A DNA stretch of 64,000 bases from positions 61,564 to 125,563 of the forward strand of contig PLNR01000008.1 of NCBI GenBank assembly GCA_003141835.1, in the 5' to 3' direction. Shown piece by piece: positions 24,979 to 40,814 of this stretch. The translations under genes and the position numbers were made by a program. Every line of letters begins with the position of its first letter. The stretch's first letter is position 1. Below the pieces are notes generated by a model. That model saw only the letters and a list, made by a program, of their open reading frames with translations. It made no database searches and was not told the DNA's origin. Origin of the DNA: Candidatus Omnitrophota bacterium. GTDB lineage: Bacteria; Omnitrophota; Gorgyraeia; Pluralincolimonadales; Pluralincolimonadaceae.

Positions 24979-25203
24979 ATGTGGTTTTTGCTGTTAATGC
25001 CCCTGGTTATCATGATAGCCGGCTTAGTGATATTCATTAAGCCGGCTTTTTGCATCGAATTCCAGAAGAAGTTCTACGCCAAAATTAATTGGCGCATGGA
25101 ACCCATTAATATGGAAATGGAGATCAGGAATACGAAAATCATGGGCTTGTTCCTGATTGGTGCCGCGATAGCAACGATTATCTATTTCTTAGTTAAGGGA
25201 TGA
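24979..25203 (+). CDS. small 2-TM membrane protein; duplicated as the C-terminus of 33437..34072
   Basis: 74 aa; about 80% nucleotide identity to 33860-34075. Confidence 0.5.
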   Translation: MWFLLLMPLVIMIAGLVIFIKPAFCIEFQKKFYAKINWRMEPINMEMEIRNTKIMGLFLIGAAIATIIYFLVKG

Positions 25204-28200
25204 TAATGAAAAAGGTCATCACCTACGTAGCGCTTACATTCCTTTTTATCGCAATACTGTCTTGTAGTTCCCTATTGTGTTGCCGCGCCTATTGTGCCGA
25301 TACCTGGTCATTCGCTGTCATAGGAGACACACGGGACAATGACCCAACTACTACAGGCGTGAGCCAATATCTGCCCGCGATAGCTTCTGCAATGGCCAAT
25401 CCTTCTTCTGTTATCTCCGGCGCAATTACGCCATCCGCGGCCTTCGTTAACGGCGATCTCGTAAACGGCGATAGCGCATTTTACCTCGACTACTCAACCC
25501 AATTCGCGAATTGGAAGACTGCCATGGCGCCACTTGGCAGCATACCCATATACACAGTGCGCGGCAATCACGAAAATGAAGTAACCGATTTATTGCCTAC
25601 GAGCGAAACCTTAAAGACGGCGTATTATAATGCCTTTGGGCCAACCGTTCCCCAGAACGGCCCGAATAACGGCCCAAATGATGACGAGGTGGGATTTACC
25701 TGGAACCTTTCCAGCCTTGACAGCCATATTAACCAAAAATATGTCCGCGTGATCGGGGTGGACCAATACTTTTATTATAATTCAACCGCGCAAGGCACTA
25801 GTCACTATTATCAGATAGACCAGGCGTGGCTGGATCAACAACTTATTCATTCGCCGCCCACGCGGTATACTTTCGTTATGGCTCATGAACCGTCATATTA
25901 TCTGGATAGCGGGGGCGACAATCCTGAGGGCGACTTTTATGGCACTACAAATCCGGATGGTAGTGCAAATCCGGCAGGGGTAGCTGCTCGCGGTGCATTC
26001 TGGAATTCCCTCGGCTCTAACGGCGTAAAGATGTATTTGTGTTGTCATGTGCACAATCTGCAGGTCGGCTATGCTTATGACAGCAATGGAAATAAAATTT
26101 ACCAGAACATGGCAGGTAATGGCGGCGCGCCGTTTGCATCGGCGGGCGCGACGGATCCAAACTTAACAGTCGCCTTTCAGGATTTTTCAGATTATGGATT
26201 TGCCCTTTATACGGTAACCAAAGATAACATCACTATTAACTATTACCTATACAATCCCACTTCGCTTACGTGGAGTATTTCTCCTTATTCCATTACCTTA
26301 GCGGCTGATCCCGTTAATACATGGAATACGACTTCAGGGAACTTTTCCACCGGTACCAATTGGGATATCGGCACTGCGCCGGGTGCAGGGGATACAGCGG
26401 TTTTCAACAACGGCGGCAGCGCGCCATCATCAGTTACTTTTGCGGACGGCAGCGCCACCACTAACAACAAATTGTTTGTAGCCAGCGGCGCGGTTACCTT
26501 CAACCTGGGAAACAACTCTTCATACACAGCAACTACCAGCGCAGCCATAGACGGCAGCTCGGATCCCACCTATCAGCCAAGCCTTGAGATAAAGGGAACC
26601 AATGGTTCAAGTTTTAATACGCCTTTACTGACGATGGACGGGGTTTCATCGTTTAAAGTGGATCCGGGAGCCTCTGCTACTTGCACTACAATTGATATTC
26701 AAGGCGGGACTGCCACTGTTGGAGGGGGAGGAGGTAATATAACGGTGACCAATCTTGTTGTTGACGGCGGCACCTTAGATATCCAATCGTTCGATCAGGC
26801 CGCCAACAATGTCCAGATGACCGGCGGCGCTATCACCGGTACAACTGGAATACTAACCAGCCTGAGTGCGTTCGATATGCAGGCAGGTACAGCCTCCGCC
26901 GTTCTCGCTGGTACGCATGGCCTGAATAAGACTACGGCCGGGACGGTGACGCTCTCCGGGGCCAACACATATTCAGGATTAACGACGATCTCCTCCGGCG
27001 CGTTATCCATTGCCGGCACGAATTCCTTGCCGGGTTGGAACACCAATGGCAGCTATAGTGTTGCCAATGGCGCGACTCTGGCGGTAGGGGATGGCGTGAG
27101 CGAAGCCAATGTTGGCGCCATTGGTACCCCACTCACCATACTAAACACTTCCAACTTCGCAGCCGGAGCGAACATAGGTTTAGATACCTCGGCAGGCAAC
27201 AGGAATTATGCTTCCGTTATCGGGAACACTTCGAACGGCGCGCTGGGTTTAACCAAGATAGGTACCAATACACTTACCCTTTCAGCCACTAACACCTACA
27301 CCGGCGCGACCACGCTGACGGCCGGCACGCTGAGCGCCGGCGCGACCGGAAACCTCGGCGCGGCGGCTTCCAACCTCGTCTTCAACGGCGGTACGCTGCA
27401 GATCACCGGTACGACTTTGACCAATATCTCGGGAATCGGACACACCGTCATAACCAATCCGGGTGAAACCGTCGGGCTGGATATCAACAATGCGGCCAAC
27501 ACATTCACATTCGATCAAGTCCTAAACCAGACGACCGGAGGCCTGACTAAATTGGGCGCGGGCACCTTGGTACTCAATAAAGCCAACACCTACACAGGAG
27601 CCACGACAGTCAGCGCAGGAACGTTACAAGCCGGAGTAGCCGCCCAGGCCTTTGGTAATAACTCGGTCGTGACTTTGAACAATACAGACGGAGGCGGCCT
27701 TAACCTTAATAACTTTAATAATACTATAGGTCCACTCAATGGTGTCGCAACCAGCACCGTCGTCCTCGGTTCAGGGACCCTTATGATCAGCGTCAACGCC
27801 GACACCGACAGAAGCGGTAACTATGTCGGTGTGATTTCAGGAACAGGCGGGCTGACTGTGGCAGGCACATACCCCGGCACACAAGTTTTAACGGGCGCCA
27901 ATTTGTATTCAGGCGTAACCACTATATCCGGCACAAGCACTCTCCAGATCGGTAACGCCGGGACAACAGGCACTCTAGGAACAGGTGCTGTAACAAACAA
28001 TGCTGGGTTGAAGTATAACCGGACTGATGTCGTACCGGCCATAACTAATGTTATCTCAGGAACAGGTACATTTGAACAAGCTGGGACCGGTACCGTAACT
28101 TTAAGAGGCAACAACACCTACACAGGAGCCACGATAGTCAGCGCCGGAACGCTGCAAGCGGATAATGATACTTACTTTGACTCTGTCAAAGGTGTTGGTT

Positions 28201-30011
28201 ATGGGGCTTTTGGTAATCTTTCGGCCGTGACGGTTGCAGTCGGAGCAACGCTGGATGGAAATGGTTATTACCATAATATAGGTTCACTTTCGGGGAGTGG
28301 TAAAGTGACTGAGAGCGATCCGGGCTTCCAATCATCTTTTGTTGTGGGCTGGGACAATTCTTCTACGACCTTTTCTGGAATTATAGAGGATGGCAATGGC
28401 CTAATCGACCTTACTAAAGATGGAAGCGGGACTTTTACTCTTACCGGTGCCAACACATATACCGGAGCTACCGCGATAAACGCAGGAACAGTGGTTGCCG
28501 GTAATGCCAATGCCCTCGGCAACGGATCGGCTGTTACTGTCGGGGCCGGCGGTACTCTCGACGTTGGCACCACCAATGTCACCGTTAATAATACCTATAC
28601 TCAGAACGGGACTCTAAAGGTGACCGTTGCGAGCCCGTCATCTTCCGGTAAGATAACATCCAACGCCAATGCATTTGTAGCCGCAACTAGCAGCGTCAAT
28701 GTCACTGTTGCAAACAGCACCTTCATCCCGAACAACACCACATACACGGTAGTAGACAGTTCAGGCGGAAACAACGTAAACGTCCCCGGCACGATCACAT
28801 CAAGCGATTCGCGTTTGACGTTCTCAGGCATAAGCTCAAACGGAGACCTCATTTTAACAGCTAGCCGCGCCGCAAACGGCTTCTCAAGCTTAGGCACGAA
28901 TTCTAACTCCTCTGCCGTTGGCGCTGTTTTAGATAACATCTCAGCCCCGTCCGGTGATATGTTAACCGTCTTAAATACGCTCGAAGGACTGAGCAATTCG
29001 CAGACAGAGTCAGCCCTTGCCACCTTAGTTCCTGTAGTCGACAGCGGAGTGACCAATGTCAGTAATACCGCCATCAACCAGTTCATGGGGACATCTACCG
29101 ACAGGCTAGGTGGCCTCTTCGCCCAGGCGCATAGCGAAGAGACCGGCGTCTCAACCGGAAGCAAGGGGAGCAGCGGTTTTGAGGCATGGGGCAGGGGATT
29201 CGGTGAATACGCCCACCAGGATCCCAGAGGGCTAAGCAACGGCTATCACGCCACTATCTGGGGCACGGCAATAGGAGCCGATATCCCAATCTTTAACGAC
29301 AAGGCCCGCATAGGCGCCGATGGCGGTTACGCCAGCAGCGGCGTAAATTCAAAAGATAACAGCGGTAAGACCTATATCGACAGCTACCAGTCAACCTTCT
29401 ATGGCGGCTTCACGGATCCCGAGAAACCCTACTACATAAACGGCGCCTTCTCCTTCGCCTATAACACATACAAGGGAAGAAGGAACATAGCCGTAGGCAC
29501 TATCACCAGGACCGCCAACGCAAACTATAAGGGCCAGCAATACTCCGTCTTATTCGACGGCGGATATATCTTTAAGACCAAACAAGTCAATATAACCCCC
29601 ATAGCCTCTATCCAGTACCTGCGCCTAAACCTCCATAGCTACACCGAGACGGGCGCAGATGCTCTCGATTTAAGTGTCAAAGGCCAGGGCTACAACCTAT
29701 TGGAATCCGGCCTGGGCGCAAAGTTCGACCGTCCATTTGAGGTCTCCTACGGCACTATAGCACCCGAGGTCCACGTCCGCTGGTTTTACGATATAATAAC
29801 CGATAAACAATCCACCACGTCTACCTTCGCAGGCGGCGGCGGTTCATTCGCCACCAACGGATTCAATCCCGCGCGCAACGCCTTAAATGTCGGGGGAAAA
29901 ATAGCCCTTCTCACAAAAGGCAACTGGAGCTTTGACGCCAATTACGACTTCGAATACAAACAGGACTTCACTTCCCATACGGGATGGGCGGATATCGCAT
30001 ATAAGTTTTAG
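25200..30011 (+). CDS. giant autotransporter: N-terminal calcineurin-like metallophosphoesterase domain, PATR repeats, C-terminal beta-barrel
   Basis: VRGNHEN and GDxVNGD metallophosphatase motifs; PATR units; C-terminal 520 aa ~87% identical to the preceding autotransporter. Confidence 0.75.
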   Translation: MIMKKVITYVALTFLFIAILSCSSLLCCRAYCADTWSFAVIGDTRDNDPTTTGVSQYLPAIASAMANPSSVISGAITPSAAFVNGDLVNGDSAFYLDYSTQFANWKTAMAPLGSIPIYTVRGNHENEVTDLLPTSETLKTAYYNAFGPTVPQNGPNNGPNDDEVGFTWNLSSLDSHINQKYVRVIGVDQYFYYNSTAQGTSHYYQIDQAWLDQQLIHSPPTRYTFVMAHEPSYYLDSGGDNPEGDFYGTTNPDGSANPAGVAARGAFWNSLGSNGVKMYLCCHVHNLQVGYAYDSNGNKIYQNMAGNGGAPFASAGATDPNLTVAFQDFSDYGFALYTVTKDNITINYYLYNPTSLTWSISPYSITLAADPVNTWNTTSGNFSTGTNWDIGTAPGAGDTAVFNNGGSAPSSVTFADGSATTNNKLFVASGAVTFNLGNNSSYTATTSAAIDGSSDPTYQPSLEIKGTNGSSFNTPLLTMDGVSSFKVDPGASATCTTIDIQGGTATVGGGGGNITVTNLVVDGGTLDIQSFDQAANNVQMTGGAITGTTGILTSLSAFDMQAGTASAVLAGTHGLNKTTAGTVTLSGANTYSGLTTISSGALSIAGTNSLPGWNTNGSYSVANGATLAVGDGVSEANVGAIGTPLTILNTSNFAAGANIGLDTSAGNRNYASVIGNTSNGALGLTKIGTNTLTLSATNTYTGATTLTAGTLSAGATGNLGAAASNLVFNGGTLQITGTTLTNISGIGHTVITNPGETVGLDINNAANTFTFDQVLNQTTGGLTKLGAGTLVLNKANTYTGATTVSAGTLQAGVAAQAFGNNSVVTLNNTDGGGLNLNNFNNTIGPLNGVATSTVVLGSGTLMISVNADTDRSGNYVGVISGTGGLTVAGTYPGTQVLTGANLYSGVTTISGTSTLQIGNAGTTGTLGTGAVTNNAGLKYNRTDVVPAITNVISGTGTFEQAGTGTVTLRGNNTYTGATIVSAGTLQADNDTYFDSVKGVGYGAFGNLSAVTVAVGATLDGNGYYHNIGSLSGSGKVTESDPGFQSSFVVGWDNSSTTFSGIIEDGNGLIDLTKDGSGTFTLTGANTYTGATAINAGTVVAGNANALGNGSAVTVGAGGTLDVGTTNVTVNNTYTQNGTLKVTVASPSSSGKITSNANAFVAATSSVNVTVANSTFIPNNTTYTVVDSSGGNNVNVPGTITSSDSRLTFSGISSNGDLILTASRAANGFSSLGTNSNSSAVGAVLDNISAPSGDMLTVLNTLEGLSNSQTESALATLVPVVDSGVTNVSNTAINQFMGTSTDRLGGLFAQAHSEETGVSTGSKGSSGFEAWGRGFGEYAHQDPRGLSNGYHATIWGTAIGADIPIFNDKARIGADGGYASSGVNSKDNSGKTYIDSYQSTFYGGFTDPEKPYYINGAFSFAYNTYKGRRNIAVGTITRTANANYKGQQYSVLFDGGYIFKTKQVNITPIASIQYLRLNLHSYTETGADALDLSVKGQGYNLLESGLGAKFDRPFEVSYGTIAPEVHVRWFYDIITDKQSTTSTFAGGGGSFATNGFNPARNALNVGGKIALLTKGNWSFDANYDFEYKQDFTSHTGWADIAYKF
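28440..30011 (+). repeat. ~1.57 kb repeat, copy 2 of the autotransporter C-terminal region (copy 1 at 23389..24958)
   Basis: Long colinear near-identical DNA, about 87-90% identity. Confidence 0.85.
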
Positions 30012-30034
30012 TATATAAAAGGTGAGTTGATAGC

Positions 30035-30364
30035 ATGAGGATCTGGGATATAGCGCCCGGAAGGTTATGCCGCAACCATCTCTTGGGCGAGCACAGGGAA
30101 CTCCACGCCATCTGGTCTGTCCTGACGCGCAACAAGAAGGGGTATTCCCGCCATCCCGAGACCTTAAGGTGGAAGGGCAGGTTAAAGGCGCTGTATTCAA
30201 GGCACACGAAGCTCGTCAACGAACTTAAACGGCGTGGCTACCTCCACCACAGCCCTCTTGATTCCCGGCTGGCGAAAGGGAAGGGGAGGCAGACGCGGTT
30301 CGTCAATTCAGTCGGCGAACAGATCAAGATTTTGAGCAGGAAAAACTGCGGCTGTAAGATTTAA
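30035..30364 (+). CDS. pyrimidine-dimer DNA glycosylase (T4 endonuclease V-like) family protein, putative
   Basis: N-terminal MRIWDIAPGRLCRNHLLGEHRELHAIW resembles T4 DenV MTRINLTLV...HLMAEYRELPRV. Confidence 0.5.
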   Translation: MRIWDIAPGRLCRNHLLGEHRELHAIWSVLTRNKKGYSRHPETLRWKGRLKALYSRHTKLVNELKRRGYLHHSPLDSRLAKGKGRQTRFVNSVGEQIKILSRKNCGCKI

Positions 30365-30377
30365 TAGGTAAGGCCAT

Positions 30378-30465
30378 TAAAATAATCATAACCCTCTGCG
30401 ATTATAACTGTTGCAGGGGATTTTTATTAAGAGTAGAATTAATCCTAACGAGGCGTTCCAAAGTT
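30378..30465 (+). repeat. direct repeat A (~85 bp, includes a terminator hairpin) after the glycosylase-like gene
   Basis: taaaataatcataaccctctgcgattataactgttgcaggggatttttattaagagtagaattaatcctaacgagg; about 92% identical to repeat B. Confidence 0.8.
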
Positions 30466-30520
30466 ACTCGCTCCAAGAATTAATTTCATTGGTTACGGAG
30501 AAGAGGAGATTTAGAAAATT

Positions 30521-31057
30521 ATGAAATACGTGACCGCTATGTTCGATTGGATAATGAGAAATAAGGAATGGATCTTTAGCGGTGTTGGAGTCGTGCTCAT
30601 AGGGTGGTTGGTCTTGGCGGTGCGCAGGTTTTTATTCATGCGACGAACTTCAAGTTCGTTGATTGAAGGGGCGACTCTTAGAGAAATAATCGAGAGTCCT
30701 GCGGTTGTGTCATCATCCGACATCGCCAACTTAACTTCTTCTCTTACCCCGAAGCAAATCATTGAAAATATAAAGGCTCTTCCGCTCCTCCAACAGCAGG
30801 ATGCCGGCAAACACTATATTGGTCTTGCTGTGAAATGGGATGGAGAGCTTGCCGATGCGAGGAAAATAGCTGAGAATTCGGTACAACTTTATATCTTACA
30901 CGGCTCAAGCAGTACAGGCTTTTTTTTAAAGGTTAACCCAAGCGACTATCCTGGGCTTAGTCTTCTAAAGAAAGGGGCTCATGTTGAGGTAGATGGCCTG
31001 ATTGAGGAAGCAGGAGCAATGTGGGTGACGCTTAATAACGCGCACATTCGCTTTTAG
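30521..31057 (+). CDS. hypothetical protein with N-terminal TM anchor
   Basis: 178 aa, low GC, one TM helix, then a soluble domain. Confidence 0.5.
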   Translation: MKYVTAMFDWIMRNKEWIFSGVGVVLIGWLVLAVRRFLFMRRTSSSLIEGATLREIIESPAVVSSSDIANLTSSLTPKQIIENIKALPLLQQQDAGKHYIGLAVKWDGELADARKIAENSVQLYILHGSSSTGFFLKVNPSDYPGLSLLKKGAHVEVDGLIEEAGAMWVTLNNAHIRF

Positions 31058-31087
31058 TATTTACTCAGCACATTATTTATGTAGGGC

Positions 31088-31150
31088 AATAAGGGACGTG
31101 TCAAAAAGGGACAGGTCGCATAAACAGAGTGTCCCAAAGTGACACGTCTC
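31088..31150 (+). promoter_or_regulatory. nested-palindrome leader element, copy 1
   Basis: GGACGTGTCA-aaaa-GGGACAG-N15-TGTCCC-aaag-TGACACGTC, preceded by TAATAAGG; ends about 35 nt before the RBS of 31187. Confidence 0.6.
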
Positions 31151-31186
31151 CGAAAAACCCATACCTTGGCATAAAGGAGGTGCTTA

Positions 31187-31591
31187 ATGAATATTCCGGA
31201 AAAAGAACAGTATAAATACCTTACTCACCATCTTGAATATCTTAATGATAAGATTCTAGGATCGTTTGAATTATTCATTAAACTCGCTACGGCAATTATC
31301 GGTGGTGTATTTCTTCTTCATTGGAAACTTGCAGAGAACCATAATAATGGAGATTCACTTGTTTTGATGTCTGATATGCTGTTTTGCATTGTCGGCGTAA
31401 GTATCATAGCCCTTATATGGATTAATCTTTGTGCTTGGCGATCATATCGAAAAACTCTCTCTAAAGAATATCCAGCTATTAAGCTTTCGAATCCTTTCTT
31501 ATGGTGGATAGGTGAAGCCATAATGAGTTTACTTATAATTATAACGTGTATATTATTTTGTCTCTTAAATCCTCTGAATAGTTTTTGTTAG
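31187..31591 (+). CDS. hypothetical multi-TM membrane protein
   Basis: 134 aa with 3 predicted TM helices. Confidence 0.5.
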   Translation: MNIPEKEQYKYLTHHLEYLNDKILGSFELFIKLATAIIGGVFLLHWKLAENHNNGDSLVLMSDMLFCIVGVSIIALIWINLCAWRSYRKTLSKEYPAIKLSNPFLWWIGEAIMSLLIIITCILFCLLNPLNSFC

Positions 31592-31595
31592 AGTA

Positions 31596-31658
31596 ATAAG
31601 GGGACGCGTCAAAAAGGGACAGGTTGCATAAGCAGAGTGTCCCAAAGTGACACGTCCC
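31596..31658 (+). promoter_or_regulatory. nested-palindrome leader element, copy 2
   Basis: One substitution relative to copy 1; precedes the RBS of 31694. Confidence 0.6.
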
Positions 31659-31693
31659 CAAACGCATAAAATCGCGCAAAAAGGGAGGTTGGA

Positions 31694-32287
31694 ATGAAAA
31701 GGGCGATAGTAATTTTTTTGGTAGCGTCATGTTTTCTTGAAGGTTGTGCATCTTATCATGCGGGGCTTTTGCCATCAAAAGATGTAATGAATTATGATAA
31801 TAAGCAAGTTCAAAATAACGTTTATGTCGTAGCAAAATTTTTGAATGCAAGAGAAACAAAACAAGTCTTTCAATTTGATCTAGAAAATAAGGGTATCCAG
31901 CCCACTTTTATTGTTATGGATAACAGAAGTCCTAAAACCTACGATTTCAAAAAATCAGACATAAATAAACAGATAATGTCTTCGCAAGAGGTAGCTGATA
32001 AATGCAAATTTAGTACTGTCGGACGAGCAACAACTTATGGAGTAGTGGGATTATTCATTTGGCCATTCTTAATTCCAGCAGTAGTCGATGGCGTAGGATC
32101 ATCGGAGGCGAACAGAAAAATTGAAGACGATTATGCTTATAAAGAATTGCAGGATGGAAGATTAATGCCAAATGCTCTCATGAACGGAGTTGTTTTCGTG
32201 TCTAAAATGAAAGAAGGAGAGGATTTTACCATAAGATTAAAAGATGTTGATACAAATGAAATTCTAAGATTTAGTTTTCAGAAGTGA
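31694..32287 (+). CDS. hypothetical lipoprotein
   Basis: Signal peptide with an FLEGC lipobox. Confidence 0.5.
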   Translation: MKRAIVIFLVASCFLEGCASYHAGLLPSKDVMNYDNKQVQNNVYVVAKFLNARETKQVFQFDLENKGIQPTFIVMDNRSPKTYDFKKSDINKQIMSSQEVADKCKFSTVGRATTYGVVGLFIWPFLIPAVVDGVGSSEANRKIEDDYAYKELQDGRLMPNALMNGVVFVSKMKEGEDFTIRLKDVDTNEILRFSFQK

Positions 32288-32335
32288 GTCACATTAGGTC
32301 GCATAAGCAGAGCGTCCTAAAGTGACACGTCCTCA
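32287..32335 (+). promoter_or_regulatory. nested-palindrome leader element, copy 3 (5' arm truncated)
   Basis: ggtcgcataagcagagcgtcctaaagtgacacgtcc matches the 3' half of copies 1 and 2. Confidence 0.5.
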
Positions 32336-32377
32336 AAATTAACCACGAAGAAACGCTATAATTAAAAGGTGTGAGAT

Positions 32378-33316
32378 ATGACTTTAATAATGTCAGCTAT
32401 TACCTCCTCGGGTATCGTTCTAACTGCCGATAGTAGACAGTCCTATAAAAATGGAGCAGGGGCAATTCGCATTGGTTCTGATAATGCATTGAAGCTTTTT
32501 AAGCTTTCCGATTATATTGGAGTTTCTATTTCAGGTAAAGCCTTTCTTAATGGGGAAAACCAATCGGTCAAAGACGTCGGATATTTTATTAATAAATTTA
32601 AACAAACAGAGGATCTAAAAGAACTAACAATCCGAGATGTTGCTAATAAACTAAATAAATATCTCGGTGACCTTTTTGTTGAGAAAGAAAGAGTATCTTT
32701 GAAAAAGCTTATTGAGGAACAAGTTACAAAGCTTGGTGGTAAAGATTTAGTTTTTCTTCCAATGGACGATTCTTTGGTTCCATATTCATATAAAGATAAG
32801 GACGGCAAGGTGATTTCAAATACAGCAATGATTGAGACAATTAATATGATTGTGGCAGGCATTGATAAGGACAAGGTAGGAAGAGCTTACTCAGTTTGGG
32901 TTCCTAAAGGGATAACGCTGGAAAAAGATACTCAGCTGTGCGGTGCTTTGTGGTGCGGTCAGAATGATGTTATCATTCGAATTGTCAAAGGATTTACACT
33001 GGAGATAGAAAAACTTAATTTTATAAAAGAGGCTCTAGCAAAAGATAACGCCTCAACTATCAGCCAGCTAAATAAAATGGAGTACATTATTAATTGGGGA
33101 ACAATGACCATCCAAGATGCGATAGATTTTTGCGTATTAATGACCCGTACTACCGAAAGCATACAGAGGTTTTCTGATGGTACCTTTTTACAACCTGGTG
33201 GTATTCCCGGCGTTGGTGGGGAGATTGATATAGCTGTTATTACACCTGAAAAAGGATTCCGTTGGCTTAAAAAGAAAAAATTGGAATCTGAGGGGGAAGA
33301 GCTTTCTTTAGAGTAA
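32378..33316 (+). CDS. proteasome-beta/HslV-like Ntn-hydrolase family protein with a C-terminal extension
   Basis: Thr directly after the initiator Met. GIVLTAD with Asp at position 17 of the Met-processed protein. KLFKLSDYIGVSISGKA parallels proteasome-beta KKIFKIDDHIGVAFAG. Confidence 0.5.
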   Translation: MTLIMSAITSSGIVLTADSRQSYKNGAGAIRIGSDNALKLFKLSDYIGVSISGKAFLNGENQSVKDVGYFINKFKQTEDLKELTIRDVANKLNKYLGDLFVEKERVSLKKLIEEQVTKLGGKDLVFLPMDDSLVPYSYKDKDGKVISNTAMIETINMIVAGIDKDKVGRAYSVWVPKGITLEKDTQLCGALWCGQNDVIIRIVKGFTLEIEKLNFIKEALAKDNASTISQLNKMEYIINWGTMTIQDAIDFCVLMTRTTESIQRFSDGTFLQPGGIPGVGGEIDIAVITPEKGFRWLKKKKLESEGEELSLE

Positions 33317-33363
33317 GAATGGAATATCAGCAAAATAGAATATAATAAGGAACGTGGGCGATA

Positions 33364-33430
33364 GGGGACGTGTCAAAAGGGCAAGGTCCCTTCGCAAAGG
33401 GAGACAGGTTATAAAAATGACACATGACAG
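33364..33430 (+). promoter_or_regulatory. nested-palindrome leader element, copy 4 (diverged)
   Basis: GGGGACGTGTCAAAAGGG ... TGACACATGACA, preceded by TATAATAAGG. Confidence 0.5.
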
Positions 33431-33436
33431 ATCTAA

Positions 33437-34072
33437 ATGAGTAAACCTGAAGAGGAATCAAGCGAAGTAAAAAATAGCAGCCGGAATATTCTTATACTTG
33501 ACGTATTGGGCATGGCTGTTATATTTATTCTTTTTATGATTGTTCGTGACAAATTTGGGCAAATTTTTAAAGAAATGGACGTGCCTGCAACGTTATCTTA
33601 TAGAATATTAATCGAACCCCACCCTGTCGTGCTTATTGTCGAATTCATTATAATCATAGCCATTCTCATTCTTAAAGAGAGAGTAATAAGGAATAAAAGC
33701 ATAACGTATTATATTAATAGCATAATTTTAGTAGTATTAGTTTTATCTATTCTCTTTTTCGGATATTCTGCTTTTTTCTTGCCCTTGATTCCTCTAATTA
33801 CGGAACTACAATCAAGGTCCAGTTTTTTCGATAAGTTCGGGTATCTTTTTAGTTATAATATAGTTGTTCCGTTAGTCATCTTAATAGCCGGCTTAATAAT
33901 ATTTATTAAGCCGGTTTCTTGTATCGAGCTCCAAAAAAAGTTTTACGAAAAGATCAACTGGCGCATGGAGCCGATCAATATGGAAATGGAGATCAGAAAT
34001 ACAAAAATCATGGGCTTATTTTTAGTCGGCGCATCCCTAGCAACAATTGTCTATTTTTTGATTAAAGGATAA
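33437..34072 (+). CDS. hypothetical multi-TM membrane protein; C-terminal 70 aa duplicate the 24979..25203 product
   Basis: 211 aa; C-terminal ...IFIKPVSCIELQKKFYEKINWRMEPINMEMEIRNTKIMGLF... Confidence 0.55.
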   Translation: MSKPEEESSEVKNSSRNILILDVLGMAVIFILFMIVRDKFGQIFKEMDVPATLSYRILIEPHPVVLIVEFIIIIAILILKERVIRNKSITYYINSIILVVLVLSILFFGYSAFFLPLIPLITELQSRSSFFDKFGYLFSYNIVVPLVILIAGLIIFIKPVSCIELQKKFYEKINWRMEPINMEMEIRNTKIMGLFLVGASLATIVYFLIKG

Positions 34073-34074
34073 TA

Positions 34075-34395
34075 ATGGAAAAAATTATTGGACAAGCGGG
34101 TAATCTAAACGATTTGGTAGCTTATCAGGAAGGCTCAATCGTAAGCAAAGAGATAATAAAAAAGGACATAGGCACGGTAACCCTTTTTGCCTTTGACAAG
34201 GGGCAGGGGTTGAGCGAACACACCGCGCCGTTTGATGCCCTGGTTTATATCTTTGACGGCGAAGCGGAAATAATGATTTCCGGCCTGCCACATCATTTAA
34301 AGGCAGGCGAGATCATCATAATGCCTGCGAATAAGCCGCACGCCTTAAAAGCGATAGAACGTTTCAAGATGATGCTGGTTATGATTAGGTCTTAA
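34075..34395 (+). CDS. cupin domain protein
   Basis: 106 aa small-barrel cupin pattern (G...H.H....E...V..G). Confidence 0.55.
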   Translation: MEKIIGQAGNLNDLVAYQEGSIVSKEIIKKDIGTVTLFAFDKGQGLSEHTAPFDALVYIFDGEAEIMISGLPHHLKAGEIIIMPANKPHALKAIERFKMMLVMIRS

Positions 34396-34407
34396 AGAGA
34401 AAAGTCT

Positions 34408-34495
34408 TAAAAATAATCATAACCCTCTGCAATTATAACTGTTGCAGAGGGTTTTTGTTAAGAGTAGAATAAATCCCAACGAGGTCTTACAAAGT
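34408..34495 (+). repeat. direct repeat B (~85 bp) with a perfect 10-bp-stem terminator hairpin
   Basis: CCCTCTGCAA-ttataact-gTTGCAGAGGG plus TTTTT, then ttaagagtagaataaatcccaacgagg. Confidence 0.8.
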
Positions 34496-34525
34496 GGCGC
34501 ATATTCAAAACCATAAGCGTGCTTA

Positions 34526-35248
34526 ATGTTGAGAGTGCCCCGATTTTTAAATAGACTTGCAATTGGTTTTAATAGTGATAGAATCAAAGAAAAAGGAGCA
34601 CAGATGGGCGTCAAGAAGAATTTATGGTTGTTTGTATTTAATGTTGTCTGCCTAGTTATTGCTATTGTTTTGTGTAGTGGGTTTATGTATTATTTTTGCG
34701 TAGCGAACCCATCTAACATTGTTTATGCAAAAGAAGATAGTTCCGCGGAGAAGGTTGAATTAAATAAACAGGAAATTAGTAAATTACAGAAGGATGATTT
34801 AAGTAATCAGGACTCTAAACAATCGGCAGTTGTTGAGGAGAAAACCGATAAGACTACGGTTTCCCTCGTTTTAAATAAAGAGAATGAAGCAATTATAAAA
34901 AATATGGAACGACGTAATAGTTTTCTCGAATTTTATATAGGGCAGATTATAAGCTTTTATCAACAAGTTATTACTTATTTATTAGGAGTAATTGGTGTTT
35001 TATTAGTCATCAGCTTTATGTATATACGTTTTACGTCTAAGCAACAAACTGAGGAGATGGCAAATGAAGCATTGAACTCAAAATCCTTCCAGATAATTCT
35101 ACAAAATCTGGTTAAGAAAGAATATGCTGAAGCGTTAAAATCAGGTGATTTTGTGGAAATGTCTAGTAAAATACCTGATTTAGCTGATAGGGTAACTGAG
35201 CTTGAGAAGATAATGAACGCAAAAGATGATGATGAAATTCAGGAATAG
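34526..35248 (+). CDS. hypothetical membrane protein with coiled-coil segments
   Basis: Two TM helices and K/E-rich regions. Confidence 0.45.
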   Translation: MLRVPRFLNRLAIGFNSDRIKEKGAQMGVKKNLWLFVFNVVCLVIAIVLCSGFMYYFCVANPSNIVYAKEDSSAEKVELNKQEISKLQKDDLSNQDSKQSAVVEEKTDKTTVSLVLNKENEAIIKNMERRNSFLEFYIGQIISFYQQVITYLLGVIGVLLVISFMYIRFTSKQQTEEMANEALNSKSFQIILQNLVKKEYAEALKSGDFVEMSSKIPDLADRVTELEKIMNAKDDDEIQE

Positions 35249-35257
35249 GGGTGAAAA

Positions 35258-35812
35258 ATGGGAATAATTAGAGAGAAATGTTTTGCTCCTGACTGTTCTA
35301 TCGCATCTAGCAATATTGATTTATATGATACTCCGGAGAAATTATTTGCTTTTGCAAGTTCTCAAGGCATTCCTACTGTGCCTTTAGACGTAGAGAAATT
35401 AGCCAATAAAATGGGTATCAAAATAGAATACGCTGATTTTCCAAATGATTTATCGGGGGAACTTATCAAGGATCCGGCAACTAATCATTGGGTTATCTAT
35501 GTGAATAAAAATCATCATATTAATAGGCAAAGATATACTATCGCACATGAAATAGCTCATTTTTGTCAGCACAGGCACTTGAAATATAGATTTGAAGACG
35601 AAATATTTTTTAGGGGTGGTGAATCATACGACAAGGAAGAAACGGAAGCAAATAATTTCGCTAGTTCTATACTTATGCCAGAACAAGAATTTAAAACTAA
35701 AGTTCGTTCGGGAATTAGGAAAATAGAAGAATTAGCTGGGATATTTAAGGTCTCAACCTTAGCCCTAAGAATAAGGGCAAAAAATCTCGGCATGTCAGGA
35801 CACGGGTTATGA
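35258..35812 (+). CDS. ImmA/IrrE family metallo-endopeptidase
   Basis: HEXXH at IAHEIAHF with the downstream Glu typical of COG2856; ATGA overlap with the next gene. Confidence 0.75.
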   Translation: MGIIREKCFAPDCSIASSNIDLYDTPEKLFAFASSQGIPTVPLDVEKLANKMGIKIEYADFPNDLSGELIKDPATNHWVIYVNKNHHINRQRYTIAHEIAHFCQHRHLKYRFEDEIFFRGGESYDKEETEANNFASSILMPEQEFKTKVRSGIRKIEELAGIFKVSTLALRIRAKNLGMSGHGL

Positions 35813-36894
35813 AGAATATATCATATGCTCCGATAATAAAAACTAGTGATGCGGAAATCAGGGGGATTGAAAACCTTGATGATGACGATAAGGATGGAAT
35901 TACTCCAATTTTTGAATTGACAAAATCAAGAAAATCAAAATATCTTCCTCAGGGTGATATATATAGAAGGCTAGAAAAGCTTAAAGATGTATTTGGTGCT
36001 AGGCGTTTCATATTAGATTTAACAAGTGATCGTAATTCTATAAATGAACAAATTGAAGAATTGCAAGATAATCATGGCGGATATAAAAATTGGATTGATT
36101 TCCTAATTTTGCAAAAGAATGATTTTCCTGAATTAATACCAACAATACAGATTACTGATAAGGGAGTTAAGACTGAAGAAGAATTGTATAATAGAGTTAA
36201 GGTACAGGTTGAAGCGTTAAACAGGAATTTTGCCGAAGTTGCTTACAGGTTTCCTTTGGAATATGAAGATTTTACGACCGACCTCAAGCATATAATTGAT
36301 AATATCTCTAAAGATAAAATTATTTGTATCGTTGATGCTGGATTCATTACGCAAGGGAAATCAGGAATCTATATAACAAAAGCAAGGAGTGTTATTGCAG
36401 AAGTAAAAAAATTTGGGATTAAAAATATAATATTATCAGCTACTTCCTTTCCAAGGAATCCGACTCAATACGGCGGTGAGGAGACAGGAGAGTGCCAATT
36501 AGAAGAGTGTTTATTTTATAATGGCGCAAGAGAAGAAAAATCTAATATCAGTTTTATCTATGGAGATTATGCCACGATTAATCCGATAAGAAGCGATCAA
36601 GCAGGTGGCAATGGATGGGTTCCGAGAATAGATATGCCTACAGAAGATGAACTTTTTTATTATAGATCTAGAAAACGCAAGCAAGAATTGACATATGCTA
36701 ACGCTTATACAAGAGTCGCACACTCTGTGGCTAGCGACCAAAGATATAAAAATATAAAGAAAAAAATCAGGGATTGCTGGGGAATTGAGCAGATTGAATT
36801 AGCCGCAAAAGGCACCCCAGAAGGATTATCACCATCCTTCTGGATCTCAGTTAGAATGAACATCCACATAACAATAAAAAATAAAATGCATTAA
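35809..36894 (+). CDS. Beta family protein (T4 beta-protein-like; sce7725-like)
   Basis: N-terminal YAPIIKTSDAEIRGIENL...ITPIFELTKSR and RRFILDL fit my recollection of the Beta_protein N-terminal pattern; 361 aa. Confidence 0.55.
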   Translation: MKNISYAPIIKTSDAEIRGIENLDDDDKDGITPIFELTKSRKSKYLPQGDIYRRLEKLKDVFGARRFILDLTSDRNSINEQIEELQDNHGGYKNWIDFLILQKNDFPELIPTIQITDKGVKTEEELYNRVKVQVEALNRNFAEVAYRFPLEYEDFTTDLKHIIDNISKDKIICIVDAGFITQGKSGIYITKARSVIAEVKKFGIKNIILSATSFPRNPTQYGGEETGECQLEECLFYNGAREEKSNISFIYGDYATINPIRSDQAGGNGWVPRIDMPTEDELFYYRSRKRKQELTYANAYTRVAHSVASDQRYKNIKKKIRDCWGIEQIELAAKGTPEGLSPSFWISVRMNIHITIKNKMH

Positions 36895-37523
36895 ACATAT
36901 AACTTATCAATTATTCCGCATAAACCTCGTAAATCATCCCATACGATTTTTCCTTCGGTATCCCTCAAGAGAAGCCTAAAAAGTTTATAGTAACGTTTCT
37001 TAAGATATGAATAAGCAGCTGTGCGGATTTTACTTGTGGTCAGCTGGTGGCTAAGCTTTTCCCGTATTTCATCTGTAGATAGCTTTCGGATATTTCTTGA
37101 GGTGCATAGGCTGAGCAGTTCAATCTTAGGCAAGAATATCAAAAGAGAACGCTTATCCAATTTTTTATTTAATCTCGCTATTTTTATAACCTTAAATTTA
37201 TCGTTATTAAATAGAATTAGTCCGGTGTTTTGAGTAATAATATTTTTAATCTTGTTAACATTCTTTATAGTGGTTATTACAGATACTTTGTCAAATGTAT
37301 TATGATAATCGTTTAGCTGCATTTTAAGTTTTCTTGGATCGTCAGAATCACTTTTTATTTCAAGGGTATGTGTTTTGTTTGAAATAATTAATAAGTCGGC
37401 TTTTCGCCTATTAGCAGAAAACAAAACTTCAGTAGCAATAGCATCCTTCGACTTATTAAAATTAAGATTGCCCCTTAATAACCATCTTATTGCTTTTGTT
37501 TTTATTAGTTCTGCTTTATCCAT
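36891..37523 (-). CDS. sce7726-like putative PD-(D/E)xK nuclease-fold protein
   Basis: RKADLLIIS...LEIKSDSD D-(x)n-E-x-K pattern; convergent with the Beta gene, stops overlapping by 4 bp. Confidence 0.5.
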   Translation of the reverse strand: MDKAELIKTKAIRWLLRGNLNFNKSKDAIATEVLFSANRRKADLLIISNKTHTLEIKSDSDDPRKLKMQLNDYHNTFDKVSVITTIKNVNKIKNIITQNTGLILFNNDKFKVIKIARLNKKLDKRSLLIFLPKIELLSLCTSRNIRKLSTDEIREKLSHQLTTSKIRTAAYSYLKKRYYKLFRLLLRDTEGKIVWDDLRGLCGIIDKLYV

Positions 37524-38134
37524 AGTTAAATGTTATCTCGCAATAATATAAAAATAATACGATCGAATATCCTTGTTGTATTTTTTGTTTTTTTAGTAAC
37601 CGATATTATACTTTAATTTAATAAAATATTCACTACAAGAGGTAATTGTGATGGTAGGCTACCTGCAATGTGTTAGTCCCAAAGGTCAAATGCATAATCT
37701 TGTGAGAATAAAGTTGTTTAAGAACAGGGCGCCGATAGTAAGAGCTAAGTTACCTTATGCCTTCACAAAGAAGTGAAAGCACTTGGCGTTCTTAGGGTAG
37801 ATTACTCTACCGTTCCGCCGAATGTATCGGCAGTACACCTCAACGCCAGGAGTTAATCCCGAACCGCGGTTATCCCGCTTTTCAGCATTAAACCTTCGTT
37901 GCATACTTTTGTCTCCTTTCCGGGGGCTAATTTTTACCTTACGCAACCCCTCAAAAAGAAGAAAATAAGATTAAGAAAATGATTTCAGGAGGGGGGTAAG
38001 TAGGAAATTAGCCTAGAAAAGAAGACATCGTAGCCCCGGAGATTTTGCTCCTTAGTTTGTCCTACCGGCACCCAAAGAACAAGTTTCTATGCTATAAATA
38101 CTACAAATTAGTCGTAAAGTCAATCTAAAAATTC

Positions 38135-38163
38135 TTGACACCCACACAAATGTGTGGTATACT
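38135..38163 (+). promoter_or_regulatory. lexA promoter TTGACA-17-TATACT with a CCACACA-aa-TGTGTGG palindrome in the spacer (candidate SOS box)
   Basis: Consensus -35, perfect 7-bp inverted repeat at 38142-38157, -10 ending 7 nt before the ATG at 38171. Confidence 0.55.
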
Positions 38164-38170
38164 CCTGCCT

Positions 38171-38719
38171 ATGAAACCCCAAGTAGAATTAACCGCCAAG
38201 CAAGAGAAGGTCCTGAAATTTATCCGCGAAAGAGTGGGGGAGAACCTGCCTCCGACCATAAGGGAGATAGCAGGGGAGATGGGCTTTGCTTCCACAGGAA
38301 CGGTTAGGGATTATCTTGCGGCGCTTCAAAGAAAGGGTTACCTCAAACGCGAAAATAACAAATCCCGGGGCATAGCGTTAATAGGAAGTATTGCGGCCGG
38401 GGAGCCGAAATTGGCCTATGAAGATATCGAGGGCTATGTCGAGATCGCCCGGGAGAATACCTTTGCCTTGAAGGTCAAAGGCGAAAGCATGATAGACGCC
38501 GGCATTATGGACGGCGACATAGCGGTCATCAGGAAACAGAAGACGGCCGATAACGGCGATATCATCGCCGCGTTACTGGACAATAACGAAGTCACCTTAA
38601 AAAGACTCAAGACCGGCGGCGGCAAGCCATTCCTGGAAGCAGCGAACAAGAAATATCCCCCGATACATAAAGAATTCAGCATCATAGGCAAACTTGTCAA
38701 TATAGTAAGAAAATATTAA
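38171..38719 (+). CDS. lexA: LexA repressor
   Basis: N-terminal wHTH (MKPQVELTAKQEKVLKFIRE), S24 peptidase GESM Ser and downstream Lys; start moved to a typical LexA Met. Confidence 0.85.
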   Translation: MKPQVELTAKQEKVLKFIRERVGENLPPTIREIAGEMGFASTGTVRDYLAALQRKGYLKRENNKSRGIALIGSIAAGEPKLAYEDIEGYVEIARENTFALKVKGESMIDAGIMDGDIAVIRKQKTADNGDIIAALLDNNEVTLKRLKTGGGKPFLEAANKKYPPIHKEFSIIGKLVNIVRKY

Positions 38720-38722
38720 GCG

Positions 38723-39055
38723 ATGGCGATATCAGGCTTCAACCCAAAGGCGCGCTGGGACCGACACCCTCTTGGCAGAGGGCAAGCTATCCCCGAGACC
38801 GAAGACAGTGTCGACCCCGGGATACTGGACGAAAAGATAGAAGTCCTGGCATATTTCAAGGGCTCAGCGATATTTCCCCGCGCGTTCATCCGCAATAACA
38901 AGGTCCACAGGATAAAAAAGATCACCTATAACTGGCAGGAACGCCGCGGCCGGGAGGTCCTGAACCTGTTTTCGGTGGACACCGGGACCTGCCTCTACCA
39001 GATATCATTTAATAACACGACCTACCGCTGGCAGATCGACAAGATAATAGCATGA
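38723..39055 (+). CDS. hypothetical 110-aa protein between lexA and dinB (possible polymerase accessory factor)
   Basis: Operon position only; no recognisable motif. Confidence 0.45.
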   Translation: MAISGFNPKARWDRHPLGRGQAIPETEDSVDPGILDEKIEVLAYFKGSAIFPRAFIRNNKVHRIKKITYNWQERRGREVLNLFSVDTGTCLYQISFNNTTYRWQIDKIIA

Positions 39056-40227
39056 TCCTGCACATAGACATGGACGCTTTTTTCGCGTCCGTTGAACAGG
39101 CCATCAACCCGCGGCTTAAAGGCAAGCCCCTGATAGTGGGCACGCGCGAAAGGAAGCTCCACACGGTCGTTTGCGCGGCCAGTTATGAAGCCAAGGCCTT
39201 AGGGATAGGCTCAGGGATGTCTTCTGAGGAGGCCTTTAAAATATGCCCGGACCTCAATTTTGTCCCGGCAGAACAAAGCAAGTATATATGGACCTCGGGC
39301 CGGATATTGGAGCTCATCAAGGGATACGGGTTCGAGACCGTATATGTTTCGATAGATGAGTTCCAAATTGATGTAGGGGATCAGGGACAGTCCCCAAATG
39401 GGGGCTGTCCCTCTTACGCCGTGGCTTTGGCCGAAGATATCCGCAGCAAAATACACAAAAACTTCAACATCACAGCTTCCGTAGGCATAGCGAAAAATTG
39501 CCTCCTTGCCAAACTCGCCTCAAAGTTAAACAAGCCAAACGGTGTAGCTGTTTTGACCGAAGCCAATTTAGCCGAAATTTTGGCCAAAACACCGGTCGAA
39601 AAATTATGCGGGGTGGGGGAAAAGACAGCCGAAATCTTCCATGATTTGGGCATCAAAACCTGCCTGGACCTGTACGCCAAAACGCCCAAATTCCTGGAGC
39701 GGAATTTAGGCAAGAACGGGCTCAATCTTTACGCGTCTTTGCATTCCGAAGAGTCGCTTGAGCCGGCTGATGATGACCCGGATCCAAAATCCGTAGGCCA
39801 TTCATATACCTTGCCGAGATCCACAGAAAATCCCGGGTTTATCCGCGCCTGGATACGCCTTTTGGCCGATATGGTCGGTGAGCGCCTAAGGCAGCAAGGC
39901 CTGGCAGCAGCGACAACACACCTATGGCTGAACGGGCCAAAAATAGGCAATTTTGGGGCCCAAAAGACATTCCCGGAAGCCACTAATGACGGCTGTGAGA
40001 TATTCCGGAGAGTACTTGTTAATATGTCCAAATTAGGGCCGCAAACGCCCAAAACAAGAGCTTTAGGCGTAACCTGCAGTAGTTTCACACATACCAGGTA
40101 TTTGCCTTTATTTGACCAACAGAAGAGCCGGGAATCGCTCCTGGAGGCGGTAGACAGGATCAATGACCGCTACGGAGACGGCTCGATTTATCCCGCCGCG
40201 ATCACTTTAACCAGGGAAATGCCTTAA
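39052..40227 (+). CDS. dinB: Y-family DNA polymerase IV
   Basis: MILHIDMDAFFASVEQ with catalytic Asp pair; SIDE catalytic Glu. Confidence 0.8.
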   Translation: MILHIDMDAFFASVEQAINPRLKGKPLIVGTRERKLHTVVCAASYEAKALGIGSGMSSEEAFKICPDLNFVPAEQSKYIWTSGRILELIKGYGFETVYVSIDEFQIDVGDQGQSPNGGCPSYAVALAEDIRSKIHKNFNITASVGIAKNCLLAKLASKLNKPNGVAVLTEANLAEILAKTPVEKLCGVGEKTAEIFHDLGIKTCLDLYAKTPKFLERNLGKNGLNLYASLHSEESLEPADDDPDPKSVGHSYTLPRSTENPGFIRAWIRLLADMVGERLRQQGLAAATTHLWLNGPKIGNFGAQKTFPEATNDGCEIFRRVLVNMSKLGPQTPKTRALGVTCSSFTHTRYLPLFDQQKSRESLLEAVDRINDRYGDGSIYPAAITLTREMP

Positions 40228-40295
40228 GCATAATCAAAAATAGTTGAAAGTTTTTTCCCTCTTTTAGCGTCTATAGAATTAAAGGAGGGTTTTTC

Positions 40296-40814
40296 ATGGG
40301 TAAGTTGATTATACATAAGGTAATAGAACAGAAGATATTCGTAATAAGGGGAAAGAAAGTAATCGTTGATAGGGACCTGGCTGAGCTTTACGGAGTAGAA
40401 ACAAAGCACTTAAATAGACAGGTAAGGAGAAATATCGACCGTTTTCCAGAAGAGTTCATGTTTCAACTTACCGAGAACGAGAAAAAGGAACTGGTGACAA
40501 ATTGGCACCAGTTTAAGCCATTAAAGCATTCATACGTGCTGCCATATGCTTTTACGGAACATGGAGTAACTATGGCGGCTATGGTATTAAACAGCGACAC
40601 GGCCATAAGGGTAAGTGTTTTTATAGTAAAGACTTTTATCAAACTCCGCGAGATTATCGCCACTCAGAAGGAATTAATGACTAAGTTCGGCGAGCTTGAG
40701 CTAAGGGTAGATAAGCATGACAAAGATATCTTAAATCTGATCAGAGTCATCAAAGAGTTATTAGAGCCGAAATTCGAGGAAAAGCCGAGGCGGAAGATAG
40801 GGTTTTATCCCTAA
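40296..40814 (+). CDS. ORF6N (KilA-N-like) domain DNA-binding protein
   Basis: IRGKKVIVDRDLAELYGVETKHLNRQVRRNIDRFPEEFMFQLT and LPYAFTEHGVTMAA match the ORF6N consensus. Confidence 0.75.
   Translation: MGKLIIHKVIEQKIFVIRGKKVIVDRDLAELYGVETKHLNRQVRRNIDRFPEEFMFQLTENEKKELVTNWHQFKPLKHSYVLPYAFTEHGVTMAAMVLNSDTAIRVSVFIVKTFIKLREIIATQKELMTKFGELELRVDKHDKDILNLIRVIKELLEPKFEEKPRRKIGFYP

Follow-up and report, generated by a model that had tools for sequence, protein, structure and literature searches.

The window, by which we mean the whole 64,000-nt stretch of Omnitrophota DNA that was analyzed, carries on its forward strand a 182-aa lexA gene (38171..38719), followed 3 nt after its stop codon by orfX (38723..39055), which encodes a divergent DUF6504-like protein of 110 aa. 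The start of the next gene, encoding a 391-aa Y-family (Pol IV-like) translesion DNA polymerase (39052..40227), overlaps the orfX stop in the sequence ATGA. These close-set or overlapping junctions suggest translational coupling across lexA, orfX and the polymerase gene. An ORF6N-domain gene (PF10543; 40296..40814) lies 68 nt beyond the polymerase on the same strand, and is a possible, if uncertain, fourth member of the operon; no terminator-like site was found after the polymerase gene within positions 37400-40400.

The lexA product contains both Pfam domains of the family, LexA_DNA_bind (PF01726, E=2e-19) and Peptidase_S24 (PF00717, E=1e-26), passes the cutoff of the NCBIfam equivalog model TIGR00498 (166 bits versus 110.95), and aligns end to end with solved LexA chains in the PDB (E~1e-29), in agreement with the gene identity assigned in the original prediction. 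Its cleavage site, A76-G77, and its catalytic residues S106 and K144 correspond to A84-G85, S119 and K156 in E. coli LexA, and all are invariant in 41 homologs. By domain content and catalytic residues, the ORF is a canonical LexA. An exact-sequence search of public assemblies found no record of this protein.

A perfect dyad fills the spacer of the lexA promoter

Upstream of lexA, a -35 hexamer TTGACA (38135..38140, forward strand) and a -10 hexamer TATACT (38158..38163, forward strand) are separated by a 17-nt spacer (38141-38157). Nearly all of this spacer is taken up by a 16-bp perfect dyad, CCACACA-AA-TGTGTGG (38142..38157, assigned to no strand), whose arms lie at 38142-48 and 38151-57 and which we propose as the LexA operator. 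The last three bases of the right arm, TGG (38155..38157, forward strand), form a TGn extended -10, and a promoter scan scores 11 of 12 consensus positions and draws the extended -10 TG from the right arm. Seven nucleotides without a Shine-Dalgarno sequence (CCTGCCT, 38164..38170, forward strand) separate the -10 from the lexA ATG at 38171, placing the dyad at about -29 to -14 relative to the start codon, where it overlaps lexA's own promoter between the -35 and the -10. The layout originally described, two hexamers framing a 7+2+7 inverted repeat and followed after 7 nt by ATG, holds in every element by direct reading, repeat search and promoter scan, and the scan also agrees that the promoter is near-consensus. 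We ruled out a CRP/FNR-type site (TGTGA-N6-TCACA), since the arm order is reversed (CACA...TGTG), the arms are spaced by 2 bp, and the site sits in a core promoter spacer, whereas CRP/FNR sites are usually found at -41.5 or further upstream.

Perfect 7-N2-7 palindromes occur in the 64-kb window at about the rate expected by chance (7 observed versus 3.8 +/- 2.1 expected), and we therefore dropped the bare palindrome as significant on its own. The window holds one exact copy of the 16-mer; its sole near match there, with 3 mismatches, falls within an autotransporter ORF (at 27732) and is no more than chance would give. The significance of the dyad comes instead from its position in a promoter spacer and its near-perfect conservation in orthologous promoters.

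The dyad is conserved across Omnitrophota lexA promoters

Our comparison set consists of 80 Omnitrophota loci from species-representative genomes, fetched by LexA protein homology independently of the motif. Their LexAs, from about 77 other genomes or species, are 50-82% identical to the window LexA, whose closest relatives all belong to Candidatus Omnitrophota. With up to two mismatches allowed, the dyad is found in 76 of the 80 loci, which are all 76 with readable upstream DNA; in the four loci without it, the upstream DNA is interrupted by the end of the contig or by a stretch of N. Counting the window, 77 of 81 sources carry the dyad.

Across the 77 unique genome-derived sites, the arms hold 1.7-2.0 bits per position, and 11 of their 14 positions are invariant. 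The sites follow the pattern TTGAC-N2-3-dyad-TA, with the TTGAC of the -35, 1-2 nt 5' of the dyad, conserved in 76 sites and TA directly 3' of the dyad in all 77; within the extended -10 TGG, both Gs are present in every site and the T is missing from one. At the centre of the dyad the dinucleotide differs between sites (AA 40, TT 29, GA 5, AT 2, TA 1), and within a few bases downstream of the -10 the information is down to about 0.2 bits. The combination of two-fold symmetry, a freely varying centre and randomized flanks, seen across deep protein divergence, points to the operator of a dimeric repressor under purifying selection. Moreover, the randomized flanks and the protein divergence exclude recent common descent as the cause of dyad identity. 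The proposal that the motif is specific to this lineage is upheld by its invariance in Omnitrophota lexA promoters, although the LexAs themselves have diverged to the extent given above.

Two further observations concern these promoters. Most of the 80 loci (L001-L080) have a T-rich tract (TTTTT, with T at about 83% per site position) 5-7 nt upstream of the -35 that resembles an UP element; at this place the window promoter has AAAAATTC. Some Omnitrophota genomes apparently hold two lexA copies, as seen for MAG STB_143 (L030 and L051), in which both copies lie behind the same operator-promoter, and for Omnitrophica WOR_2 SM23_72 (P0068 and P0072).

A probably leaderless layout in most promoters and a misplaced start codon

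We compared the gap from the -10 to the start codon in 153 unique promoters that immediately precede lexA. It measures 5-9 nt in 115 of them, which neither leave room for a Shine-Dalgarno sequence nor show one; the commonest gaps are 7 nt (76 promoters), 6 nt (25) and 8 nt (9). In the remaining 38 the leader is 10-113 nt long, and an SD-like motif is present in 30 of these longer leaders. Sigma-70 promoters normally start transcription 6-8 nt after the -10, so that with the 7-nt gap of the window the predicted +1 coincides with the A of the lexA ATG or adjoins it. This bimodal distribution, with either no leader and no Shine-Dalgarno sequence or a leader with one, argues that the short form represents a genuine leaderless mRNA. 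The suggestion that the window promoter is probably leaderless, with no room for a Shine-Dalgarno sequence, thus extends further than first stated: lexA mRNA is probably leaderless in most of the phylum.

Many LexA homologs (P0001, P0003, P0005, P0008, P0012 and others) are annotated with a 7-residue N-terminal extension beginning MCGI, which corresponds to 38150-38170 in the window. The extension appears spurious because MCGI is what results when ATG-TGT-GGT-AT, the right arm and the -10, is read as protein. Judged from the promoter layout, it is a systematic start-codon misannotation that follows from the leaderless arrangement, with the gene caller choosing the ATG that lies within the operator.

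Recognition helix and dyad are equally conserved

By alignment, the recognition helix of the window LexA reads S41-T-G43-T44-V-R46-D47, against S39-P-N41-A42-A-E44-E45 in the E. coli protein. We take N41, A42, E44 and E45 of E. coli LexA to be the residues that contact the CTGT bases in the LexA-operator crystal structure (3JSO family); all four are replaced in Omnitrophota LexA. Of about 190 LexAs encoded next to the module formed by dyad and promoter hexamers, 178 share the helix core STGTVRD, while neighbouring residues vary. An invariant recognition helix together with an invariant operator fits LexA as the protein that binds the dyad. Co-variation of operator and helix proved uninformative as evidence, because the few one-base operator variants keep an unchanged helix.

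A lexA-orfX-polymerase operon with inserted genes

The order lexA-orfX-polymerase is kept in most of the 80 Omnitrophota loci, and in the window the operon has a host-like GC content of about 50%. The polymerase contains the catalytic motif DMDAFFASVE and matches Pol IV models, but scores below every equivalog cutoff. For the window orfX product we found no Pfam match above threshold, no PDB relative and no literature. All 16 orfX homologs tested weakly match Pfam DUF6504 (best E 2.4e-6). OrfX homologs are 100-110 aa long and stay with the polymerase when it is detached from lexA, as in locus L163 described below, making orfX a candidate polymerase accessory factor. Homologs of the ORF6N gene lie in or beside the operon in three loci (L002, L027 and L030); in a fourth (L010), the distance to lexA is about 5.5 kb, on its upstream side.

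In some genomes, damage- or phage-type genes, encoding RecQ, Bro-N, KilA-N, RhuM or DUF3800 proteins, separate the operator from lexA, and it seems that the promoter, proposed to be damage-inducible, serves as a landing pad for inserted genes. Loci with RecQ or with phage-derived or defence-like inserts are L006, L007, L010, L014, L024, L027, L028, L033, L035, L069 and L184.

Additional palindromes are found in some of these leaders. A second conserved palindrome, ACTATCCGGAAATTCCGGTTA, lies just downstream of the module in L006, L010, L014, L021, L027 and L184, in the leader of operons with extra genes between operator and lexA; in L028 it takes the form AGCTATCCGGAATTTCCGGATAGCT and lies just upstream of lexA. 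Possible readings of this palindrome are a further operator, an RNA hairpin and a recombination scar. Another palindrome, CGTGACAA-T-TTGTCACG, is located about 20 nt upstream of the lexA ATG in L020 and L024, after an upstream gene that is Bro-N-like in L024; L020 ends at the contig edge.

The regulon of the site appears minimal

We scanned metagenomes with the exact full module of 21 specified bases, a search to which differently placed operators are invisible, and obtained matches at no fewer than 120 loci (at least 120). Among the matches listed, 99 modules lie directly upstream of lexA, 11 lie upstream of lexA with inserted genes, three are at contig ends, and seven have no downstream lexA; thus 110 of the 117 informative modules among these matches head lexA operons. 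About one chance family of matches is expected at the size of the metagenome database.

One clean copy of the module detached from lexA is found among the matches listed, in L163, which represents a more distant lineage with 60% GC. Here the module is followed by a pair of genes, one orfX-like (32% identity) and one Pol IV-like (36% identity), and there is no lexA on the 4.4-kb contig. A module without lexA nearby argues for a factor acting in trans. In L184 the module precedes a RhuM-RecQ arrangement, and the same arrangement in L035 continues into lexA. In L164 it drives a DEAD-domain fragment lacking its N-terminus, and we downgraded an assignment of this target as an Lhr-type helicase to a DEAD-domain fragment.

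Four of the seven lexA-less modules among the matches listed are copies of one phage-like element, which is also present in a viral contig (L096). In this recurring element (L096, L167, L172, L190 and L243) the same module, with TA or CA at its centre and followed by a Shine-Dalgarno sequence, drives a small membrane protein and XRE-type regulators; the element may use an unrelated repressor with a convergent operator. Its possession of the module means that a promoter-embedded 16-mer is not unique to lexA contexts. A scan of viral contigs with the bare dyad gave 54 matches, nearly all out of context, with promoter-like settings in L096, L100 and L128 only. L100 is a low-GC phage contig (IMGVR_UViG_3300005935_003368) with a TTGAC-dyad-TATACT module on the minus strand at about 10024-10039, preceding a small ORF and genes for a putative small terminase and an intein-containing large terminase; the contig may represent a phage tied into host LexA control.

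The only extra perfect dyad in the genome-derived loci, at position 15042 of L072, overlaps the 3' end of an opposite-strand gene. We ruled it out as a detached polymerase promoter, since a 409-aa ORF on the opposite strand occupies the gap and extends into the site. Across 1.1 Mb of Omnitrophota sequence, weaker dyads with 2-4 mismatches showed no excess (for 3 mismatches, 6 observed versus 12 expected). In six genomes with recQ away from lexA, no dyad with up to 3 mismatches was found within +/-5 kb of recQ. Apart from the Y-family polymerase gene, no classic SOS gene in our sample has the dyad upstream; in this sample, centred on lexA and recQ neighbourhoods, E. coli baits picked up no recA, uvrA, uvrB, ruvB or ssb.

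The original prediction suggested that the motif could be used to map the SOS regulon of the lineage, with a search for further copies upstream of DNA-damage genes. The detached orfX-polymerase pair in L163 and the repair or damage genes inside some lexA operons speak weakly for such copies, while recQ and the weaker sites speak against them. A broad regulon did not emerge from the DNA sampled, in which the site is almost confined to lexA-operon promoters. In this lexA- and recQ-centred sample, the regulon is apparently minimal, with the site almost confined to the lexA-polymerase operon.

LexA as the probable repressor at the dyad

Overall, we consider it likely that CCACACA-NN-TGTGTGG is the operator of the Omnitrophota LexA repressor, as first proposed; the phylogenetic footprint supports this reading, from which binding is inferred. 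The dyad would occupy the spacer of a strong sigma-70-type promoter, with its right arm doubling as the TGn extended -10. A bound LexA dimer, with one winged-helix domain on each arm, would block RNA polymerase. Upon DNA damage, RecA-stimulated self-cleavage at A76-G77 by S106 and K144, as predicted from the conservation of these residues, would release the promoter, and the spacing suggests that transcription would then begin at or next to the ATG to give a leaderless mRNA. This mRNA would encode LexA, the DUF6504-like protein and the Pol IV-like translesion polymerase. Such a circuit would constitute a self-resetting, damage-inducible mutagenesis or translesion cassette, and on present evidence this cassette would be most or all of the site's regulon.

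A different trans-acting regulator, either another repressor or the orfX product, might bind the dyad while LexA binds elsewhere. Such a regulator would account for the dyad's association with the orfX-polymerase pair in L163, where no lexA is nearby, and for a regulon that is unusually small for a LexA box, and orfX is of uncharacterized function. Against it, LexA normally controls its own gene by way of an operator in the lexA promoter (PMC8565304), nearly all informative modules among the listed metagenome matches head lexA, and the recognition helix of LexA matches the dyad in invariance. Moreover, the lexA upstream region contains no other conserved dyad, and orfX has no detectable DNA-binding domain. 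We judge a different regulator possible but unparsimonious, and improbable.

We regard as very unlikely that the dyad is a feature of the promoter itself or of a mobile cassette, in which case recent horizontal spread, or a spacer that serves RNA polymerase or its sigma factor, would explain its conservation. The extended -10 supplied by the right arm fits a promoter-intrinsic role, but would involve only 2-3 of the 14 arm positions; we know of no sequence constraint over 14 positions in sigma-70 spacers, and perfect two-fold symmetry around a free centre typifies the target of a DNA-binding protein dimer. Similarly, the window copy adjoins a low-GC island and foreign genes are often inserted behind the promoter, as would suit a mobile cassette, but the lexA operon itself has host-like GC, and proteins diverged to 50-65% identity next to non-coding positions at about 0.2 bits indicate selection, not recency.

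Finally, we give hardly any credence to the dyad being an RNA hairpin in a 5' leader made from an upstream promoter, with the true start at the in-frame ATG at 38150 inside the dyad: although the MCGI extension is annotated in many homologs and the reading frame is open from 38135, an ATG at this position needs a centre ending in A (AA, GA or TA) and is TTG in 31 of 77 sites (29 TT and 2 AT), the three residues after MCGI are not conserved, the homolog alignment begins at the downstream Met, E. coli and Thermotoga LexA align from the region of that Met, a 7-bp stem closed by a loop of only 2 nt is sterically unfavourable, and -35 and -10 hexamers frame the dyad precisely in every species.

Building on LexA as the dyad-binding repressor, we can tentatively propose a broader model, which we hold to be possible though rather doubtful. 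The Omnitrophota SOS response might consist of one self-contained unit, with an invariant operator fused to an extended -10, a leaderless lexA/DUF6504/Pol IV transcript, and recA and excision repair outside LexA control. Its promoter may serve as a landing pad that renders Bro-N, KilA-N, RhuM, DUF3800, ORF6N and RecQ genes, captured on the operator side of lexA, damage-inducible, and the DUF6504 protein might be a new obligate partner of the Y-family polymerase, analogous to UmuD or YolD.

Relation to known LexA systems

LexA is unusual among transcription factors in that its binding motif has been reinvented repeatedly, and each new LexA motif is a data point on the co-evolution of regulator and site. 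The Omnitrophota are a candidate phylum of largely uncultured, often ultra-small bacteria. In the Verrucomicrobia, their nearest characterized PVC relative, LexA reportedly binds TGTTC-N4-GAACA, which differs from the Omnitrophota dyad. The number of published LexA-binding motifs stood at 15 by 2011 and 17 by 2021 (PMC3108266, PMC8565304). These include the SOS box CTGT-N8-ACAG of E. coli and the Beta- and Gammaproteobacteria, located at the lexA promoter (PMC8565304), and GAAC-N4-GTTC in Gram-positive bacteria, GTTC-N7-GTTC in Alphaproteobacteria, TTAC-N3-GTAA in Bdellovibrio, GGTT-N10-AACC in Geobacter and TTACACATATTTTWTACATA in Balneolaeota (PMC8565304, PMC7739468, PMC3108266). For Planctomycetes LexA, it is said only that the E. 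coli motif is not used (PMC3108266). The original prediction that the dyad differs from the E. coli and Gram-positive boxes can be widened, as it matches no motif quoted in PMC8565304, PMC7739468 and PMC3108266; by comparison with the motifs quoted there, which are not all 17, it is apparently undescribed as a LexA motif. Our literature search found no work pairing LexA with Omnitrophota, the one co-occurrence with Omnitrophica being unrelated.

Like the E. coli SOS box, the Omnitrophota dyad is a 16-bp palindrome overlapping the lexA promoter, and the two LexAs share their two-domain architecture and cleavage chemistry. The sequence of the dyad is entirely different, however, as are the recognition-helix residues at N41, A42, E44 and E45. 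E. coli lexA moreover has a leader with a Shine-Dalgarno sequence and a regulon of more than 40 genes, whereas the Omnitrophota gene is probably leaderless and the site nearly restricted to one operon. As with other phylum-specific LexA motifs, fold and role are kept and the operator is changed. The way of finding it is also the same, since such motifs typically emerge from conservation among orthologous lexA promoters (PMC7739468, PMC8565304), as was the case for Balneolaeota (PMC7739468), and the regulon core again centres on translesion synthesis polymerases, which are core SOS genes (PMC8565304).

The operon resembles the lexA/imuA-imuB-dnaE2 cassettes in being, as proposed, a LexA-controlled error-prone polymerase module that is linked to lexA and co-regulated with it. 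The lexA-linked imuA-imuB-dnaE2 cassette likewise forms a compact, self-contained damage-inducible unit. ImuB is an inactive Y-family protein, in contrast to the Pol IV-like polymerase with its catalytic motif found here; the middle gene is DUF6504-like, and no DnaE2 was seen in the operon. Another parallel is phage lambda cI expressed from P_RM: this S24-family repressor regulates its own synthesis through an operator that overlaps the cI promoter, and its mRNA starts with the AUG. The S24 domains are related (PDB 3bdn match), and in Omnitrophota, too, an operator within the repressor's own promoter and a leaderless mRNA are predicted. Lambda cI differs in its DNA-binding domain, its three operators and its positive autoregulation, whereas the single spacer dyad in Omnitrophota implies simple repression. 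Non-canonical LexA-like repressors of Bacteroidetes bind GGA-N5-TCC and CTAA-N5-TTAG upstream of dinB/umuDC-type genes (PMC8565304). Their operators also come from comparative genomics and their regulons are also small and polymerase-centred; their DNA-binding domain is not homologous to that of LexA, unlike the Omnitrophota protein, which is a canonical LexA passing the equivalog model.

That operators differ between phyla is known. What is apparently new here is the pairing of a canonical LexA with a probable operator of previously unreported sequence that is fused to an extended -10, usually heads a probably leaderless transcript, and serves an apparently minimal regulon. The dyad would supply a LexA motif for the whole candidate phylum Omnitrophota, for which we found no SOS information in the literature searched, and with it the DNA-damage response of the phylum could be predicted from metagenomic sequence alone. 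The dyad would also correct the widespread start-codon misannotation of Omnitrophota LexA, points to a conserved, uncharacterized DUF6504-like partner of a translesion polymerase, and offers a compact, tightly specified candidate repressor/operator pair.

Other features of the window

A low-GC island at 30000-38000 (about 36%, range 34-42%, versus about 51%) ends just upstream of the lexA promoter. It encodes an M78/IrrE-like peptidase (35258-35812) whose gene is translationally coupled to that of a PF14350 'Beta protein' (35809-36894), and also holds several ORFs without a Pfam match; it is likely a mobile or defence island. Farther upstream lie two tandem autotransporters with PATR repeats, of 944 aa (22124-24958) and 1603 aa (25200-30011), the larger of which has an N-terminal calcineurin-like phosphoesterase domain.
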